DNA of 6,425 bases from a virus. Its lineage: Duplodnaviria; Heunggongvirae; Uroviricota; Caudoviricetes. The translations under genes were made by a program, and so were the position numbers. The stretch lies in IMG/VR virus record IMGVR_UViG_2713896904_000003, positions 1-6,425 of that record. The stretch is one strand, 5' to 3'. Positions 1 to 6,425 of this stretch are shown piece by piece; positions within the stretch are counted from its first letter, which is position 1; every line of letters starts with the position of its first letter. The notes beneath the pieces are model-generated. The model searched no databases and was not told where the DNA came from. It saw nothing but the letters and a program-made list of their open reading frames with translations.

Positions 1-521
1 GTGACAGACGGCACAACAGGCTTCGGTAATCTCAGTGCCTTACGGGCAGCACTTTCCGGTAAGGCATCCGCCAGGTCATTACGAATCAGCCACCAGCACA
101 GTTCCGGCATTGTCACAACGTGACTATCATCAAAACCGAGATCCCGACGCACAACAGACAACACCCAGCGGGCACAGTTATCCGTTGCCATTGATTCCAG
201 CCGTTCCGTGAACTGATCGCGCAGCTGGTTATCGCAGTGCCAGCACAGACGGATTGCGCCCGGAGCGTGTCGCATTGTGGTCATGTTCTCGCTGTGCCAG
301 TCGGAATGAGGCCACTGGCAGCCTTTTTCACGAAGTAACCAGCTTTCAAGACATTCCACGCCACCAGCACGACGGATCACTGCCTCATTGCGGAACACGG
401 CCCGAACGGCAGGATCATCCGCCAGCGGTTGTGATGCCGCCGGAACGGCACCACTGGCGAAAGATGAATAACGTTCTGGCTCAGGCTCCAGCAGGACACG
501 CCCCTGCATAAACAGGGGCAT
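1..521 (-). CDS. DUF968-like prophage nin-region protein, 3' end beyond window; start uncertain (ATG at 521, 509 or 557)
   Basis: Minus-strand frame is open from 623 to position 1 with no stop; my translation from ATG 521 gives MPLFMQGRVLLEPEPERYSS...RLCWHCDNQL...ELCWWLIRNDL. Absent from the ORF track, presumably because it has no stop in the window. Cys/His/Trp-rich pattern and position after a KilA-N gene recall the DUF968/YdfU family; family name is from memory. No strong SD at any candidate start. Confidence 0.55.
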   Translation of the reverse strand, partial: MPLFMQGRVLLEPEPERYSSFASGAVPAASQPLADDPAVRAVFRNEAVIRRAGGVECLESWLLREKGCQWPHSDWHSENMTTMRHAPGAIRLCWHCDNQLRDQFTERLESMATDNCARWVLSVVRRDLGFDDSHVVTMPELCWWLIRNDLADALPESAARKALRLPKPVVPSV

Positions 522-600
522 CAACTCTGAACCTGGCCTGAACAATACGATCCCCATACGCGGGGCAATTTCAGGGGTCAGTAGTGCTCTCACGGTCACC

Positions 601-1428
601 TCAATGAACGGTATCGAGCAGCTTTAACAGCTCAGGGAATCGGGATTCGAAGAAATGCGGCTGCGTCTCGCGCGGATTTGCGGGACTGGTGATGTTCTTG
701 CCGAACATGCAGCCTTTCGCCGTCAGCGACCAGAATTTTTTGATGTTGTTAATCGCAGTGCGGCTGTATCGTTCACGTTGTTCAACGATCCCCAGCTTCG
801 CCATCTGGTGATATGCCTGATTAGCTGTCAGGCGGATACCATACTGCTTCAGCAGTGCACTCAGTGACAGCGTGGGGCGGCTTGAGCCATCAGGCGCGTC
901 AGCAGAGCGCGGTGCCAGATTCGGTAAGCCAACAGCTTCCTGGAGTTTCTGACAGGCACCAAGCACTGATGAGTTAGACAGATTTAACTCCCGGCGCATA
1001 AAGTCCAGCAGAATCACGCCAGCCTGCATCTTGTCAGCAGCCTGCCCGGATAATTTTTCCGGTGTGCTGGTTACCATGTCGAAAGTACGGATCACCTTCA
1101 GATGGAATGACGGGCTGATCCACATTGCATAGGCATACACCAGTTCCTTACAGACATATGTTCCGCCATTCCGCCCTTCTATTTTACTGACAGGTTTACT
1201 ACCCAAATTTTGGGTAGTTTCATTGAATGAACCGACACCCAGATTTTGGGTATCGATCAATTCCTGAACCAGCTCAGTAATCTGTTGGCTAGAAAGAAAC
1301 TTTCCCGGCTCCTTGGTTCTGGCATTTGCACCAGATGCTACTGCTGCGCGATGCAGATCGTTCAGGCTGTAACGCCCATAAGCATCACGACGAACTTCAA
1401 TACCATCAATGACCATCAGATTATTCAT
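601..1428 (-). CDS. KilA-N domain protein (275 aa) with uncharacterised C-terminal half
   Basis: N-terminus MNNLMVIDGIEVRRDAYGRYSLNDLHRAA... with ...YVCKELVYAYAMWISPSFHLKVIRTF is a typical KilA-N pattern. I place the start at ATG 1428 (AGAGGAGAAA SD 9 nt upstream) rather than the track's 1461, which would overlap the RusA 3' end. Confidence 0.75.
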   Translation of the reverse strand: MNNLMVIDGIEVRRDAYGRYSLNDLHRAAVASGANARTKEPGKFLSSQQITELVQELIDTQNLGVGSFNETTQNLGSKPVSKIEGRNGGTYVCKELVYAYAMWISPSFHLKVIRTFDMVTSTPEKLSGQAADKMQAGVILLDFMRRELNLSNSSVLGACQKLQEAVGLPNLAPRSADAPDGSSRPTLSLSALLKQYGIRLTANQAYHQMAKLGIVEQRERYSRTAINNIKKFWSLTAKGCMFGKNITSPANPRETQPHFFESRFPELLKLLDTVH

Positions 1429-1447
1429 ACTTCGTTTCTCCTCTTGA

Positions 1448-1837
1448 TCAGGCAGCTGCACCCGCCGTTTTCTCGTACTTACTGATAGTGATCTCGACCT
1501 TCCCTTCCGGGATAACCGGTCCCCATTCCACCAGCATTCTTTTCACCTGACTGTCGTCTTCCCACACCCCCGCGTGGGTCAGGGCGTCAAACAGCGCCTT
1601 GTTATAGTTGTCCAGATCGCGGATCCTGTTATCCGGAGGAAACAACACGATCTCCACTGAAGCAGGTGCCGACGTTGGTTTCGGCAGACGACGTAACTGT
1701 TCAACTATTGCTGCGCACGCCGCGCTCTGAAATTTTCGCCCCGCCGCGCTTATCAGGCTCTTACCTGCAAACGCCCCTTTGTTGGGGTGTCGCCAGTACG
1801 TGTTCACGCTGGGCGGAAAAGGCAGGATAAGCTTCAT
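1448..1837 (-). CDS. rusA: RusA-type Holliday junction resolvase (crossover junction endodeoxyribonuclease)
   Basis: 129 aa; PFPPSVNTYWRH near the N-terminus, catalytic-type acidic motifs RDLDNYNKALFDAL and WEDDSQV; clear resemblance to E. coli RusA. ATG at 1837-1835 overlaps the upstream stop as ATGA. Confidence 0.9.
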   Translation of the reverse strand: MKLILPFPPSVNTYWRHPNKGAFAGKSLISAAGRKFQSAACAAIVEQLRRLPKPTSAPASVEIVLFPPDNRIRDLDNYNKALFDALTHAGVWEDDSQVKRMLVEWGPVIPEGKVEITISKYEKTAGAAA

Positions 1838-2160
1838 ACTTTCAAGCCCCTCTCATGTAACCAGTGAGTTGCACGCAGCCTGGCGTTTTCCTCACCGGCA
1901 AGCAGTGCGCGGATAATCCCGACCGTCTCGCTGTCGTCGTCCTTCACTGCGGTATGAAGCGTTATCCCCCGGGCCACGCCACGCTTTATTGTGATGACGC
2001 CTTTTTTCTCCAGTGCGCGAAGATGCTCCACCGCTGCATTCACCGAACGGTATCCCAGCATGGTTGCCACCTCCTGATTGGTTGGCGGGAAGCCACGTTC
2101 TTTCTGGTAAGAAATCAGCATATCCAGCACCTGCTGCTGGCATTGAGTTAACGTCGTCAT
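1834..2160 (-). CDS. LexA N-terminal DNA-binding (winged-helix) domain protein lacking the S24 peptidase domain (108 aa)
   Basis: MTTLTQCQQQVLDMLISYQKERGFPPTNQEVATMLGYRSVNAAVEHLRALEKKGVITIKRGVARGITL aligns by eye with the LexA N-terminal domain ([58 protein letters not shown]...). Start at ATG 2160 is preceded by GTGGGGG and forms a TAATG overlap with the upstream stop; the track's start at 2193 is an in-frame alternative. Confidence 0.7.
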   Translation of the reverse strand: MTTLTQCQQQVLDMLISYQKERGFPPTNQEVATMLGYRSVNAAVEHLRALEKKGVITIKRGVARGITLHTAVKDDDSETVGIIRALLAGEENARLRATHWLHERGLKV

Positions 2161-2639
2161 TAAGCCCCCACGTAATTGCCTGGCAGATACCACTCTTCAC
2201 CCGATGCCACGCACCTTTTACTTTTGCGTACACACCGCTCACGGCGCGCCAGAAAATTGTTTCGTTCTGACTGGGAGTGGCTTTCACGGAATGCCTCCAT
2301 CCACACCGTTGCAGCACGACGAAATAAACCTCTTGACTCCAGATCTTCTGCCTGCTGAATCAGGCGCAAAATCACCCGCTGATCATTAGTGCCGACGTAG
2401 CTTTTACTGGCCACACTCATATGCTTCAGCACCGGCTCAGGTGGCAACACAGCCTTGCGAGAAAAATGCCGGTGTGTTTTGCCTTCACTGCGATAAGCGA
2501 CACGTCTGCACTGGCGTAACTTACTGGTCGTATTCAGTACACGGGGACGTGGAAAGTATGCAAACGCGTTCGCAATATCACCGGTCGTACATCCAGGATT
2601 GCTTTCAATGAATTTTTGAATCTCACTCATCAGGCTCAT
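2160..2639 (-). CDS. PerC-like transcriptional regulator with an N-terminal winged-helix-like extension (159 aa)
   Basis: C-terminal RLIQQAEDLESRGLFRRAATVWMEAFRESHSQSERNNFLARRERC matches the PerC-family pattern as I recall it (AE-LE-G-aromatic-RRAA-W). N-terminal MSEIQKFIESNPGCTTGDIANAF resembles a wHTH. Start at ATG 2639 with GGGGGTG SD; the track's longer ORF to 2717 is an upstream extension inside the O-like gene. Confidence 0.55.
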   Translation of the reverse strand: MSLMSEIQKFIESNPGCTTGDIANAFAYFPRPRVLNTTSKLRQCRRVAYRSEGKTHRHFSRKAVLPPEPVLKHMSVASKSYVGTNDQRVILRLIQQAEDLESRGLFRRAATVWMEAFRESHSQSERNNFLARRERCVRKSKRCVASGEEWYLPGNYVGA

Positions 2640-2641
2640 GA

Positions 2642-3448
2642 TCACCCCCTGAATCCTGCCGGGATCTGGCTGTAGTCCACATTGTTGTAACTGGCTTTGA
2701 AGTACGGGTCTTCGCATCTGGCCGCCGATACCGCAGGAACTTCCCAGGATTCTTCGAAATGACGATCCGGACCAAAGAACGTGACAGCCTGTTTCACAAA
2801 TTGTGTGCCGCTGTTACCCATCGCAGATACCCAGCCCGCGTAGCGTTTCACACCTTCCAGCATGGTTTCGGGGTTTACCCCCTCGTTCAAACGGGCTTTC
2901 CAGGCTTTGAAGGCCGCTGATTTTGAATTGCCACCAGCACGTTTGGGATATGCCAGCCATGCCTGCTCAAACTCCGGAGAGTATTCCGGTCGGTTTGAAC
3001 GAACTCGCACAGACTCATCAGCAGATGCACCAACAGCTATTGGTTCATTGACTGGTTCAAAAGAGTGACTGGTTCTGGGTGAATCTCCTGCACTACCCCC
3101 TGGTGCAACTCCTGCACTACCTGGTGAATTTGCTGCACCAGATAGTGAATTATTTGCACTACCCCCTAGTGAATCTCCTGCACCATCAAGATGAAGAAGA
3201 TAGATATTACTTGAGTTACCTTTTTCACCTTTCCTGGTGACTTTTTTTACCAGCCCGGACTCACAGAGGGCCGCAATATGATTCATCACAGAACGTTTGC
3301 TAATCTCGCACTGATCAGCGATATGCTGATAGCTGGGCCAGCACTCGCCCTGATCGCTGGCATTATCAGCCAGCTTAATCAGAACCAGTTTTCGCAATGG
3401 ATTTCCCACTCGAATTTTCATCGCTTTAACCATCAGCTCCATACTCAT
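2642..3448 (-). CDS. Lambda O-like replication initiator: N-terminal HTH, low-complexity linker encoded by iterons, C-terminal DnaT-like domain
   Basis: N-terminus KIRVGNPLRKLVLIKLADNASDQGECWPSYQHIADQCEISKRSVMNHIAALCESGLV is a replication-initiator-type HTH. The middle GGSANNSLSGAANSPGSAGVAPGGSAGDSP is encoded by direct DNA repeats. C-terminus EFEQAWLAYPKRAGGNSKSAAFKAWKARL. GGAGGT SD 5 nt before ATG 3448; ATGA overlap with the upstream gene. Confidence 0.75.
   Translation of the reverse strand: MSMELMVKAMKIRVGNPLRKLVLIKLADNASDQGECWPSYQHIADQCEISKRSVMNHIAALCESGLVKKVTRKGEKGNSSNIYLLHLDGAGDSLGGSANNSLSGAANSPGSAGVAPGGSAGDSPRTSHSFEPVNEPIAVGASADESVRVRSNRPEYSPEFEQAWLAYPKRAGGNSKSAAFKAWKARLNEGVNPETMLEGVKRYAGWVSAMGNSGTQFVKQAVTFFGPDRHFEESWEVPAVSAARCEDPYFKASYNNVDYSQIPAGFRG
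3079..3190. repeat. Five iteron-like direct repeats (putative origin of replication inside the initiator gene), flanked by an AT-rich tract at about 3188-3250
   Basis: Units start at 3079, 3103, 3124, 3145 and 3169 with 21-24 bp spacing: GTGAATCTCCTGCACTACCCCCTG / GTGCAACTCCTGCACTACCTG / GTGAATTTGCTGCACCAGATA / GTGAATTATTTGCACTACCCCCTA / GTGAATCTCCTGCACCATCAAG. Adjacent AT-rich stretch aagatgaagaagatagatattacttgagttacctttttcacc. Confidence 0.65.
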
Positions 3449-3681
3449 GCAGCACCTCCGAGATGCTTCATGTTTTTTCCGGAGCGAAAGGCTATAAGCG
3501 GCATACTGACGCGGTAATTACGGCCCAGCGGTTCACAAATCACTTTCTGACATTCACGGTCAACCAGGCTAACACGTAGAACATGCCCTGCAGGCGTGGT
3601 GTACCACTGCCCAACTGTAGGAATTGATGTTTTTTTACGCTGAAGTAAACGGCGAATATTGAGGCTCAACGGATTAAGCAT
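3445..3681 (-). CDS. Hypothetical small protein (78 aa), translationally coupled between the 278 aa gene and the O-like initiator
   Basis: Strong SD GGAGGG 7 nt before ATG 3681; its start overlaps the upstream stop and its stop overlaps the O-like ATG (ATGA). Basic N-terminus (NIRRLLQRKKTS). No family recognised. Confidence 0.55.
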   Translation of the reverse strand: MLNPLSLNIRRLLQRKKTSIPTVGQWYTTPAGHVLRVSLVDRECQKVICEPLGRNYRVSMPLIAFRSGKNMKHLGGAA

Positions 3682-4510
3682 GACGATGCCCTCCGCTGAT
3701 ATTCAGGAGACGGTGAATATGAAAATTAGCCTTATCCACCAAACGGATACGTTCAGCCTGCAAGTTAAGAAGGGTTTCTACCAGAACCTGATGCGCCTGC
3801 GGATCCGAAAGAGTTACCTTGCGCAGAGCACGTAGTGCAGTTGTTACATAACTGAGTTTATGTAAGTCTTCATCATTCAGACGAGTGAGGGCTGGGACAG
3901 TAGCCATGATGGCAGCCTCCTTGATCGGTGAAATACTTCCACCACCGGAAACGCCAATTTCGCTGGTGGTGAACTGAACGGGGTTGGCGTAACCGGTGAT
4001 CAAGGAAACCGGCGCATCTTTCGATGCCCCCGCCCAGCCCACCATAACTTTGATGTGAGCAAATGCGGACGATAAAAAAGACGCTGGCGCGTCATATATC
4101 GCCTTGATCAATTCCAGGACGCCAATCCCGGCACCCGCTTTATAAGGTGCCTGAACAGTGTAACGTCCCGGAATGGCAGAATCAATGTGCTGGTGGTCCT
4201 TCACACTCAACAAAATCACGCCTGAATTTCCACAAAGGACTAAAGCACTCATGCGGGTAGTCTTTGCGAAGATAGATAACGCGCTGTGTTTCTGGCTCCC
4301 AACGAATAACATGAACATAAAGTCCTCTTCCGTCACGAAACCAGCGGTTAAGTTCCTGCACAACTCGCCCCCCACAGTCAGGTAAAGTTCTCTGTGGTTA
4401 CTTACAGCCAGGTGATTTGGTAATCTGCATTCATGCCGTAACAACAGGTGTTCAGCGACGCTGACCACCAGCTGTTGCGACAAACGGTTATTTGCCGTTA
4501 AACTGTTCAT
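3674..4510 (-). CDS. Hypothetical protein (278 aa), possible Rossmann-like alpha/beta core; function unknown
   Basis: Long uninterrupted ORF; ATG 4510 overlaps the CII-like stop as ATGA. Alternating hydrophobic strands and Gly-rich loops (LVLCGNSGVILLSV, YKAGAGIGVLELIKAIYD, VSLITGYANP, EIGVSGGGSISPIKEAA) suggest a nucleotide-binding-type fold. No Walker A, macro, SIR2 or nucleotidyltransferase signature that I can confirm. Confidence 0.65.
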   Translation of the reverse strand: MNSLTANNRLSQQLVVSVAEHLLLRHECRLPNHLAVSNHRELYLTVGGELCRNLTAGFVTEEDFMFMLFVGSQKHSALSIFAKTTRMSALVLCGNSGVILLSVKDHQHIDSAIPGRYTVQAPYKAGAGIGVLELIKAIYDAPASFLSSAFAHIKVMVGWAGASKDAPVSLITGYANPVQFTTSEIGVSGGGSISPIKEAAIMATVPALTRLNDEDLHKLSYVTTALRALRKVTLSDPQAHQVLVETLLNLQAERIRLVDKANFHIHRLLNISGGHRHA

Positions 4511-5070
4511 GCGTTAGTTTCTCCACAGACACAAAACGCCACGACGCCCGGAGCTGCACACTCGCGGGCGTCACTCTTTTCTGGAGCGCAAAAGATTTTG
4601 TAGACCAGTGCTGCATGCTCCTGGAGCTTCGAAATTGACAGATACAACTCATCATTAATTGCTGTCTGCTCGTGTGGCTCCACTACCCCATCTTCGATTG
4701 CCGAACGAATCTGCTTTGAGTAACTCCCGATCTGTTCGATGACTTCCAGCAGGCGCTGGTTGATATCGGCGTTCTCTACTTCCTCAATTTCAGGAAGCGA
4801 TACAAACACCCCACCAGCAGACTGTGCGACAGCATCCGCAATGTAGTGAGTGCCAGCCGCGCGCTGTAAAATCATTGCCCATCCCAGCGGGAAAATCTGA
4901 TCGCCATCTGCACGAAGGCGGTTGAATAAAGCGTTCTCTGTTACATCCAGCCACTCAGCAGCTTCAGCGTAACCCCCCGGCAACGCCGCGATAGTTTTTC
5001 TGACAGCTTTCACGTACCACTCAGGCTGTTTTTCTACTTTCCAGTGATGCTTACCCACGGTTAGCCTCAT
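4507..5070 (-). CDS. CII-like early regulatory protein (phage regulatory protein CII/CP76-like); alternative GTG start at 5058
   Basis: Sits directly after the cro-like gene. HTH-like segment GGYAEAAEWLDVTENALFNRLR followed by a helical C-terminal region; architecture resembles CP76-family CII proteins as I recall them. ATG 5070 has a weak SD; GTG 5058 is preceded by GAGG. Confidence 0.5.
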   Translation of the reverse strand: MRLTVGKHHWKVEKQPEWYVKAVRKTIAALPGGYAEAAEWLDVTENALFNRLRADGDQIFPLGWAMILQRAAGTHYIADAVAQSAGGVFVSLPEIEEVENADINQRLLEVIEQIGSYSKQIRSAIEDGVVEPHEQTAINDELYLSISKLQEHAALVYKIFCAPEKSDARECAAPGVVAFCVCGETNA

Positions 5071-5101
5071 CGTTCTGTGGTTAAAAATTGAAGGTGTTCT
5101 G

Positions 5102-5302
5102 TTAATCTTTCGGATAGATATCCGGTCTTAAGTCAGATTTCGTAATTGCACCTGACGTGCATTGCTCAAGTTTTTTAGCCAGCACAAAACTGGCTTTTTT
5201 ATAACCATTGAAAACCAGCCGTAAGTAGCCTGGTGTTGAGCCAACTTTGCCAGCCAACTCGGCCTGCTGTTCTTTGGTTAAAGAGTCCCAATACGCTTTC
5301 AT
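5102..5302 (-). CDS. Cro-like small HTH regulator (66 aa)
   Basis: MKAYWDSLTKEQQAELAGKVGSTPGYLRLVFNGYKKASFVLAKKLEQCTSGAITKSDLRPDIYPKD; GGAGGT SD 9 nt before ATG 5302; divergent from the cI-like gene. The track's 167 aa ORF is an in-frame upstream extension that would run through the operator region and the cI start. Confidence 0.7.
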   Translation of the reverse strand: MKAYWDSLTKEQQAELAGKVGSTPGYLRLVFNGYKKASFVLAKKLEQCTSGAITKSDLRPDIYPKD

Positions 5303-5392
5303 ACAATATGTACCTCCGGTATACACATTACATGATTGAGATGAACCTTCAAGATACTTGTACCTTAACGGTACAAGGGTTTTAATTTCGTT
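5303..5392. promoter_or_regulatory. Divergent OR-like operator/promoter region between the cro-like and cI-like genes
   Basis: Perfect 21 bp palindrome CTTGTACCTTAACGGTACAAG (5357-5377) and imperfect dyad ATGTACC-tcc-GGTATACA (5308-5325) share the half-site TGTACC/GGTACA. Candidate PR on the minus strand: -35 TTGAAG (plus 5347-5352), 16 bp spacer, -10 TAATGT (plus 5325-5330). Candidate PRM on the plus strand: -35 TTGTAC (5358-5363), 17 bp spacer, -10 TTTAAT (5381-5386), which would start the cI mRNA at or near ATG 5393. Confidence 0.5.
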
Positions 5393-6067
5393 ATGAAAAC
5401 AGTCCATGACATCCGGCGGTCTAACGCCAGAAAACTGAGAGATGGTGTTGGCGGGAATTCTTCCTTTGCCACCATGATTGATCGCGAGCCAACCCAGACC
5501 AGCAGGTTTATGGGAGATGGTGCAACTAAAAATATCGGTGACAGCATGGCACGGCACATCGAAAAATGTTTCGACCTGCCTGTCGGATGGCTTGATCAAG
5601 AACACCAGACAACGAACATCACAAAAAAACCTGATGTTTCAATCACTAACAAACAAATAACGTTAGTCCCTGTCATATCATGGGTACAGGCCGGAGCATG
5701 GAAAGAAGTTGGCTATTCTGAGGTTGATTTGAGCACAGCAGAAACTTATCCCTGCCCTGTACCCTGTGGCGAAATGACTTATATCTTGCGGGTGATTGGT
5801 GATTCAATGATTGATGAATACCGCCCGGGAGATATGATTTTTGTTGATCCTGAAGTACCTGCCTGCCACGGTGACGACGTTATTGCATTGATGCACGATA
5901 CAGGTGAAACCACCTTTAAAAGGTTGATAGAAGACGGAACACAACGTTATCTCAAAGCATTAAACCCAAACTGGCCAGAGCCTTACATTAAGATCAACGG
6001 TAATTGTTCCATAATTGGTACTGTGATTTTCTCAGGAAAACCAAGGAGATACCATATTAAAGCCTAA
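5393..6067 (+). CDS. CI-like prophage repressor: N-terminal HTH plus C-terminal S24 (LexA-like) autopeptidase domain
   Basis: C-terminal region ILRVIGDSMIDEYRPGDMIFVDPE...TFKRLIEDGTQRYLKALNPNWPEPYIKINGNCSIIGTVIFS parallels lambda CI (GNSM...[40 protein letters not shown]). Ala-Gly in VQAGAW matches lambda's VQAGMF cleavage site; Ser in GDSM and Lys in FKRL form the dyad. Confidence 0.85.
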   Translation: MKTVHDIRRSNARKLRDGVGGNSSFATMIDREPTQTSRFMGDGATKNIGDSMARHIEKCFDLPVGWLDQEHQTTNITKKPDVSITNKQITLVPVISWVQAGAWKEVGYSEVDLSTAETYPCPVPCGEMTYILRVIGDSMIDEYRPGDMIFVDPEVPACHGDDVIALMHDTGETTFKRLIEDGTQRYLKALNPNWPEPYIKINGNCSIIGTVIFSGKPRRYHIKA

Positions 6068-6079
6068 TCAATATTTATG

Positions 6080-6103
6080 AACCTGCTTCGGCAGGTTTTT
6101 TTA
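6080..6103 (+). terminator. Rho-independent terminator downstream of the cI-like gene
   Basis: AACCTGC-TTCG-GCAGGTT stem-loop (7 bp stem) followed directly by a run of seven T. Confidence 0.6.
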
Positions 6104-6106
6104 TAC

Positions 6107-6140
6107 TTGACAATGTACCCTTGAGATACATAATGTACCC
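6107..6140 (+). promoter_or_regulatory. PL-like promoter with duplicated operator-like motif
   Basis: TTGACA (6107-6112), 16 bp spacer, CATAAT (6129-6134). Direct repeat AATGTACCC at 6112-6120 and 6132-6140 carries the same TGTACC core as the OR-region dyads. Confidence 0.45.
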
Positions 6141-6243
6141 AGATGAAACAGCGAACAGGCAGGATGCCCACGAAGTAGCCGCCCGGGGCATATGAAGACC
6201 GGGATGATTCGTTAGCAACAAAAAAGCGCCGTACCGGACACTT

Positions 6244-6256
6244 CGCTCTTTAACAA
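6244..6256 (+). promoter_or_regulatory. boxA-like element (possible nut-type antitermination site) in the leader of the leftward transcript
   Basis: CGCTCTTTAACAA matches the rrn boxA consensus (TGCTCTTTAACAA) and the CGCTCTT core of lambda nutL/nutR boxA as I recall them. A possible 5 bp stem hairpin CAAGT-aattgata-ACTTG follows at 6271-6288, though its loop is larger than a canonical boxB. Confidence 0.4.
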
Positions 6257-6301
6257 TCTGATCCCCATCAACAAGTAATTGATAACTTGAGGAAGTGTGA
6301 A

Positions 6302-6391
6302 ATGCACAAAACAGAACCAAAAATCGTCGCGCCAGGCTACACTGAACCGCCCCGGGAATCCTGGAGACTAAACTTCCTGAGAAAGAGGTAA
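6302..6391 (+). pseudogene. Gene start truncated by IS insertion; only about 13 native codons (MHKTEPKIVAPGY) remain
   Basis: GAGGAAG SD 6 nt before ATG 6302, about 170 nt downstream of the PL-like promoter. The reading frame runs into the putative IS end at about 6343 and stops at 6389-6391 inside IS-derived sequence. Confidence 0.35.
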
Positions 6392-6425
6392 ACAGGATGA
6401 CTAAAAATACTCGTTTTTCCCCCGA
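6343..6425 (+). mobile_element. Left end of an IS3-family insertion sequence (IS629/IS1203-like), continuing beyond the window
   Basis: TGAACCGCCCCGGGAATCCTGGAGACTAAAC... followed by AGAGGTAAACAGG ATG ACT AAA AAT ACT CGT TTT TCC CCC matches, from memory, the IS629-type left inverted repeat and the orfA start MTKNTRFSPE. Exact boundary is uncertain by a few bp. Confidence 0.55.
6396..6425 (+). CDS. IS3-family transposase OrfA, 5' fragment (MTKNTRFSP...)
   Basis: ATG 6396 with AGAGG SD; the first nine codons match the recalled OrfA N-terminus of IS629-like elements; runs off the window end. Confidence 0.5.

Follow-up and report, generated by a model that had tools for sequence, protein, structure and literature searches.

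The 6,425 nt viral sequence IMGVR_UViG_2713896904_000003 (IMG/VR, positions 1 to 6,425 of the record; hereafter the window) harbours two small minus-strand genes directly behind the gene of a replication initiator, i.e.: p159 (nt 2160-2639), encoding a 159 aa protein of the YfdN family (PF06069, PerC), and p108 (nt 1834-2160), encoding a 108 aa protein that consists of a LexA DNA-binding domain without the peptidase (PF01726; phrog_362, 4e-59). Together, they occupy exactly positions 1834-2639, for which a preliminary description had proposed two small DNA-binding regulators in the slot of a helicase loader. The overlap reported there to join both genes is indeed present, the p159 stop and the p108 start sharing one base (GCTTAATGACG; TAATG junction). 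At the other ends, the p108 stop overlaps the start of rusA (ATGA), and a gap of 2 nt separates the initiator stop from the p159 start without overlap (TGAtcATG). Both genes are real, are under purifying selection and encode a DNA-binding winged helix each.

In p108, a LexA-type winged helix (aa 1-70, nt 1951-2160, minus strand) is followed by a conserved two-helix tail (aa 75-103, nt 1852-1938, minus strand). Residues 1-65 matched the LexA_DNA_bind model PF01726 over its whole length with 69 bits (cut-off 23.7 bits), while the score against the full-length LexA model TIGR00498 (70.5 bits) remained below the cut-off of 110.95. Peptidase_S24 was not found in p108 by Pfam; the residues Ser119 and Lys156 are absent, and the protein stops at residue 108. 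A phmmer search of the PDB retrieved Escherichia coli LexA (6.5e-16), with which p108 shares 50 % identity across residues 1-70, and the AlphaFold model of p108 was superposed by Foldseek on DNA-bound E. coli LexA (3jso) at 1.0 Å over 67 residues (51 % identity). Both the profile searches and the superposition on the N-terminal domain thus bear out the proposal that the 108 aa protein is the LexA N-terminal domain without its peptidase. The ratio of non-synonymous to synonymous substitution rates (dN/dS) of 0.07-0.13 points to purifying selection.

According to published data, E. coli LexA reads CTGT through five DNA-contact residues, i.e. Ser39, Asn41, Ala42, Glu44 and Glu45. Four of these (Ser39, Asn41, Ala42 and Glu45) as well as the wing residues R64-G65-I66 are retained in p108, while Glu44 is replaced by Val, the recognition helix reading SVNAAVEH compared with SPNAAEEH in LexA. 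Val is found at this position in at least 90 % of the p108 family, and the recognition helices of the phage homologs vary; therefore, the specificity of p108 for SOS boxes is uncertain. The alignment with LexA continues through the linker up to the cleavage site, where A88-G89 of p108 are aligned to A84-G85 of LexA (LLAG, aa 86-89, window 1894-1905, versus VAAG), suggesting that p108 originated by truncation of a lexA copy just past the cleavage region. Homologs have K or N instead of G89, and p108 carries no catalytic domain that could act in cis. The two-helix tail, with the pattern LLxG...AR..A..WL...G, is common to p108, mEp390 and ST846phi9.1, and, judging by the predicted helices only, probably supplies dimerisation.

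The second protein, p159, is composed of an N-terminal winged helix (aa 1-62, nt 2454-2639), a disordered linker (aa 63-86), a PerC-type three-helix module (aa 87-143, nt 2211-2381) and a short conserved C-terminus (WYLxGNYVG), all encoded on the minus strand. Residues 96-143 matched positions 6-53 of the 90 positions of the Pfam PerC model PF06069 with 34.3 bits, above the curated gathering cut-off of 22.6 bits, and PHROG 1324 matched p159 from end to end. In the AlphaFold model (predicted local distance difference test, 76.6), helices 3-13, 19-25 and 31-43 together with strands 47-52 and 55-60 form the winged helix (residues 3-60), followed by disorder at residues 64-80 and three helices at 87-143. 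The fusion of a winged-helix-like N-terminus to a PerC-like C-terminus had been recognized correctly. A sequence search of the PDB with p159 gave no meaningful match; a sub-threshold match to the NCBIfam ANR regulators is compatible with a protein-interaction hairpin. The dN/dS of 0.17-0.28 again indicates purifying selection. The combination of both domains defines a small family, with 95 representatives among 1.84 billion in an exhaustive search, and is kept down to around 30 % identity.

The p159 allele of the window is 94 % identical to one E. coli cluster and 65-70 % identical to the common phage allele, while the p108 beside it is 96-98 % identical to that of the same phages that carry the common p159 allele. 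This contrast suggests mosaic recombination with breakpoints at gene boundaries. Two further loci (L020 and L088) match the window only across positions 1352-2715, with 98.5 % identity. A side observation concerns the string AYRSEGKT (aa 48-55, window 2475-2498), which fits the Walker A pattern and is located in the wing of p159. It was the sole match of a six-frame Walker A scan, and most homologs have AHRCEGDT; since its Lys is Asp in most homologs and a single match corresponds to chance level, the string was rejected as a P-loop. The earlier statement that the operon encodes no Walker-type ATPase is therefore in agreement with the scan.

Among characterized proteins, YfdN of the E. coli K-12 prophage CPS-53 (PF06069, PHROG 1324), described as the only PerC homologue of K-12, has the same two-domain architecture as p159, of which the window carries a rarer variant. 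Also, yfdN follows the O-like gene yfdO just as p159 follows the initiator gene. PerC of enteropathogenic E. coli as well as PchA, PchB, PchC and PchE from prophages of enterohaemorrhagic E. coli contain a homologous PerC module and are, like p159, encoded by prophages; for PchE, the module is 39 % identical to that of p159 over 46 residues. Unlike p159, PerC and the Pch proteins (PchA-E) are single-domain proteins of about 90-104 aa with no recognisable DNA-binding domain, to which p159 adds the N-terminal winged helix and the linker. PchE as an ortholog of p159 was ruled out, being a 90-aa PerC-only protein in a P4-like element, where its gene adjoins ssb and a primase gene, an arrangement different from the p159 locus. 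To activate transcription, the Pch proteins remove H-NS from silenced, AT-rich DNA; activation of LEE1/ler or relief of H-NS silencing is on record for group-1 Pch proteins and PerC only. The preliminary description had further pointed to the activation of host virulence loci by PerC-family proteins; however, only group-1 Pch proteins activate ler, while the group-2 and group-3 homologs PchD and PchE have little or no effect on it, and the virulence link is therefore unsupported for p159.

For p108, the experimental precedent is gp6 of the Bacillus thuringiensis tectivirus GIL01, a truncated LexA homologue that recognizes a palindrome of its own and switches on the late promoter. Like p108, gp6 is a LexA DNA-binding domain that lacks the catalytic domain and belongs to the early genes of a temperate phage, where it serves as a phage-timed DNA-binding regulator. 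GIL01 differs from the lambdoid phages considered here in phage type and host, and these lambdoid phages use a Q antiterminator for late genes. Compared with gp6, p108 is much closer to its host LexA, given the 50 % identity, and has the additional two-helix tail. E. coli LexA itself shares the fold, four of the five contacts and the homology through the linker to the cleavage site, but has the S24 dimerisation and catalytic domain where p108 has the helical tail. AriS of Listeria was also considered as an analogue of p108 and rejected, as this AntA/KilAC protein is unrelated in sequence. PADLOC indicated no defence-system relationship for p159 or p108.

To describe the arrangement of both genes, we compared the 80 best matches of each query (a p108 set and a p159 set, together 160 viral loci). 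These loci are closely related, and the counts therefore describe arrangements rather than independent events. The common order is initiator, p159, optionally a gene for Dam or another methyltransferase, optionally p108, rusA and a KilA-N gene. In the p108 set, the gene directly upstream of p108 was dam in 48 of 80 loci, p159 in 30 and a contig end in 2. In the p159 set, p108 was present in 49 and absent in 25 of the 74 loci that reach rusA; 6 further loci were incomplete. In contrast, rusA lies directly downstream of p108 in 80/80 related loci, and mEp390 and the Klebsiella phage Kp4866-6 show this order as well. Several phages lack one gene or the other: mEp390 has the initiator, a p108 homolog (47 % identity) and rusA, with p159 absent; ST64B has p159, a methyltransferase gene and rusA, with p108 absent; in cdtI, only 26 codons of p159 remain behind an initiator of the window type; L013 has a different initiator allele and no p159; and in Stx2a_WGPS2 p159 is interrupted by an insertion sequence. 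Genes for LexA DNA-binding domains only are also found away from rusA among other accessory early genes in EPP-1, ST846phi9.1 and yong2. In Kp4866-6, the order is the same, with p159 at 28 % identity and two methyltransferase genes between p159 and p108.

The site between p159 and p108 is a hotspot for methyltransferase cargo in relatives, with none there in the window. It holds a Dam-type N6-adenine methyltransferase gene in many relatives (e.g. 5258-5911 of L001, mEp460), a longer methyltransferase gene in ST64B (L004, 4983-5876), and genes for Dam plus a 656-aa C5-cytosine methyltransferase in Kp4866-6 (L168, 5417-8333).

When searched with the 2.1-kb stretch from rusA to the initiator gene, 2767 of 5426 complete E. 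coli genomes gave a match, and so did 73 phage records, among them mEp460, SfV, SfII, SfIV, cdtI, Ayreon, 2H10 and many Stx2a, Stx2c or Stx2k (Shiga toxin) converting phages. Ayreon, which was obtained from pond water and isolated on K-12, shows the exact arrangement of the window. PGAP names the two products ‘PerC family transcriptional regulator (yfdN)’ and ‘LexA family transcriptional regulator’, other annotators using ‘LexA DNA binding domain protein’ for the latter. The identity of both genes is hence already known, as they are near-identical to widely annotated genes.

The initiator of 268 aa (nt 2642-3448, minus strand; PF13730, 1.7e-11; phrog_270, 2.8e-87) consists of an HTH_36 origin-binding N-terminus, a low-complexity linker and a C-terminal domain; the HTH_36 domain and the phrog_270 match corroborate the O-like initiator assumed upstream of the two genes. 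Its C-terminal half (aa 144-247) matched phrog_1701 (3.5e-33), one of the PHROGs annotated as DnaD-like loader or primosomal protein, and the Pfam and PDB sequence searches returned nothing for this domain. The initiator ends in a 24-residue tail (CEDPYFKASYNNVDYSQIPAGFRG; nt 2645-2716, minus strand), for which the allele alignment gave the consensus REDPYFKASYxNVDYSQIPAGFRG. The tail is nearly invariant among six initiator alleles that are otherwise 20-29 % identical, with mEp390 among the alleles that share it, and is also present in L013 and cdtI and, as IPRGFRG, in Kp4866-6. Synonymous differences in the DNA coding for it show selection on the peptide and not merely a recombination junction. 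It is possible that the tail is a docking motif for a host factor, and it is a better candidate than p159 or p108 for recruiting such factors. Tail-bearing initiators occur without p159 in mEp390, cdtI and L013, and without p108 in the ST64B type. The linker-coding part of the initiator gene contains phased direct repeats of the families D1 and D2 (GTGAAT.. and CTCCTGCACTACC; nt 3079-3188; spacing 24/42/66 nt), which are candidate origin iterons, presumably comparable to the lambda ori inside gene O.

Lambda P and the DnaC-type or DnaB-type replication partners of lambdoid and Eru-type Stx phages are encoded at the same position as p159 and p108, right after the initiator gene, but bear no similarity to them in sequence, motif or fold, and p159 and p108 are non-obligate. 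Neither protein matched a loader family in Pfam, PHROG or NCBIfam, and no helicase or loader is annotated in the whole genome of the plaque-forming phage mEp460. The replicon type as a whole is loader-less, as found in SfV, mEp460, Ayreon and the Stx-phage replication type ‘Eru6’, plaque-forming phages included. Stx2a_WGPS2, the named representative of Eru6, carries the module, and the Eru1-3 types were rejected as its counterpart because all of them carry helicases. The authors who described the Eru phages state that nothing is known about their replication proteins. YfdR, encoded in the same phage family, binds DnaA and affects the DnaA-DnaB interaction.

The minus-strand genes of the window form one rightward early operon, which diverges from a plus-strand gene for a cI-type repressor with S24 peptidase domain (5393-6067; Peptidase_S24, 92.8 bits). 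In the direction of transcription, the operon comprises a Cro/YdaS-like gene (5102-5302), a CII-like gene (4507-5070), an Ash-family region (3674-4510) and a gene for 78 aa (3445-3681) ahead of the initiator gene, and, after p108, the genes for the Holliday-junction resolvase RusA (1448-1837; PF05866, 6e-15) and for a KilA-N domain protein (601-1461; PF04383, 7e-21; phrog_129, 7e-115). Two RNA elements at Rfam gathering level lie on the minus strand inside the long Ash open reading frame (ORF), i.e. isrK (4074-4150, 64 bits), with a terminator-like stem at 4093-4080, and the C4 antisense RNA (3962-4049, 82 bits). Their position within this 278-aa ORF means that the ORF is probably over-called, and also that early transcription must pass isrK and C4 before reaching the initiator gene, p159 and p108. 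The arrangement resembles the Gifsy-1 isrK-orf45-anrP and P1 immI switches.

With CTGT-N8-ACAG as the pattern of a perfect SOS-type box (consensus SOS box TACTGTATATATATACAGTA), the window contains one perfect box, CTGTGGTTACTTACAG at 4392-4407, around 100 nt into the Ash-family ORF. The count in the window is not significantly enriched, as 18 of 200 shuffles reached it. The phage boxes include CTGTAAGTAACCACAG and CTGTAAAAATAAACAG as well as the dinI-promoter boxes. mEp460 (L006) has five perfect boxes compared with 0.64 expected (positions 23257, 23285, 31972, 33200 and 41023), including two at the dinI promoter and another where a late-region DNA methyltransferase gene begins. The box in the Ash gene was found in 34 of 36 p108-positive loci and in 2 of 13 p108-negative ones, a correlation confounded by lineage (E. 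coli versus Salmonella), with exceptions both ways. Lambda pO is under LexA control; an antisense promoter of the oop/pO type was considered for the box at 4392-4407 and rejected, since the consensus scan showed neither a promoter nor a terminator there. With four of five contacts retained and GIL01 gp6 as a precedent in kind, action of p108 at SOS-type boxes is plausible.

Our data are probably best explained as follows, and we consider this explanation as a whole to be likely. The window would represent the region for immunity, replication and early accessory functions of a lambdoid (pro)phage of the SfV/mEp460/cdtI/ST64B type, which is widespread in Enterobacteriaceae, and p159 and p108 would be independent, individually dispensable accessory genes of its rightward delayed-early operon, neither of which loads the helicase. 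They would lie in the equivalent of the lambda nin region, between the initiator gene and rusA, KilA-N, DUF968 and Q, and be co-transcribed and translationally coupled with their neighbours. The LexA DNA-binding domain of p108 may have been captured from an enterobacterial lexA gene, cut just past the cleavage-site region, with a small helical tail gained, and would thereby escape inactivation by RecA-stimulated self-cleavage. After induction, p108 would most likely bind CTGT-type palindromes, be they operators of its own, SOS-like boxes or a mixture of the two, and thereby repress or activate genes at a time set by the phage, in the manner of GIL01 gp6. In p159, a putatively sequence-specific winged helix is joined to the kind of module that relieves H-NS silencing in Pch, and the protein is probably a Pch-like anti-silencer or an activator targeted to AT-rich genes of the phage or the host, made post-induction alongside the replication genes. 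Encoding no loader, the replicon presumably relies on the initiator to bring in host DnaB/DnaC or primosome factors, with the C-terminal domain and the invariant tail of the initiator as the best candidates for this recruitment.

Several points weigh against this explanation. Glu44 is replaced by Val in p108 and the recognition helices of its phage homologs vary, the window is not enriched in SOS boxes, and dimerisation of p108 is predicted from the helical tail only. Moreover, p159, when present, always lies directly after the initiator gene, with at least four initiator alleles, and this invariant placement leaves room for an accessory role in replication. Among phages that share the initiator, cdtI is the plainest case without p159, but it is only putatively infectious, and overexpression screens mention yfdN only non-specifically.

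The alternative that survives best, although we think it doubtful, is that p108 is an uncleavable LexA mimic, which after induction would re-occupy host and phage SOS boxes, such as those of the phage dinI gene, and damp the SOS response independently of RecA. The retained contacts and wing residues, the fit of p108 to DNA-bound LexA at 1.0 Å, the excess of perfect boxes in mEp460 with two at the dinI promoter, and the distribution of the Ash-gene box among p108-positive and p108-negative loci are in line with such a role. However, SOS boxes in prophages are expected targets of host LexA with or without p108, the correlation of the Ash-gene box with p108 is lineage-confounded, and the window shows no box enrichment. 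The exchange of Glu44 throughout most of the family and the divergence of the recognition helices among homologs point in the same direction, as does the characterized analogue gp6, which evolved its own site. In addition, an isolated LexA N-terminal domain without dimerisation binds DNA weakly, which also counts against a mimic.

It is tempting to speculate further, with somewhat less expectation, that a RecA-proof p108, dimerised through its tail, re-occupies both host and phage SOS boxes after induction and that, separately, a host replication factor may dock onto the invariant tail of the initiator (...DYSQIPAGFRG). If true, the phage would, while replicating, switch off again the host SOS response and with it rival prophages under SOS control, colicins and the dinI gene of the phage itself.

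We regard it as rather improbable that p159, instead of being a general transcription regulator, assists the initiator as an accessory factor linked to replication, for instance by modulating origin transcription or ori chromatin or by excluding the host or a rival replicon. Its invariable position right after the initiator stop codon, maintained with at least four alleles and even at 28 % identity in Klebsiella, would fit such a factor, and a UTI89 fragment from Ash through yfdN2 to dam scored in a filamentation screen. Nevertheless, that screen did not pin down the responsible gene, cdtI and L013 have lost p159 while keeping an intact initiator, mEp390 lacks it too, and positional conservation of this kind is typical of lambdoid mosaic modules.

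Even less credit can be given to p108 as a partner or regulator of RusA, targeting or restraining the resolvase on DNA rather than acting as a transcription factor. The constant position of rusA behind p108, with the ATGA overlap, in all 80 loci and in mEp390 (at 47 % identity) and Kp4866-6 would fit such a partnership, but the 80 loci are near-identical relatives, such that common descent largely accounts for the linkage; phages of the ST64B type have rusA but no p108 (25 of 74 loci), and the LexA-domain-only genes of EPP-1, ST846phi9.1 and yong2 stand away from rusA.

Finally, it is very unlikely that p159 and p108 functionally replace a P or DnaC-type helicase loader, e.g. as adaptors between the initiator and host DnaB. 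In favour of this reading, both lie where lambda has P, the window and mEp460 are devoid of an ATPase or loader, p159, if carried at all, comes after each of the initiator alleles observed, and p108 gave very weak, non-significant matches to DnaD_N and an O-like PHROG. Against it, the initiator is kept while either gene is missing (mEp390, ST64B, cdtI, L013 and the insertion-disrupted WGPS2), a dam gene commonly separates the two, neither shows loader-family similarity or a conserved Walker motif, and p108 is 50 % identical to a transcription-factor domain with its DNA-reading residues kept. Of the helicase-loader slot, the position directly after the initiator gene therefore stands, while the evidence speaks against the function, given that each gene is missing from relatives and that dam often lies between them.

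Our findings mainly confirm the existing annotation of p159 and p108 and remove the tempting but unsupported idea of a loader replacement. Around half of the complete E. coli genomes carry the module, as do many Stx2-converting phages. If p108 interferes with the SOS response, or p159 with H-NS silencing, they could affect prophage induction, the release of Shiga toxin and the cross-talk between co-resident prophages.

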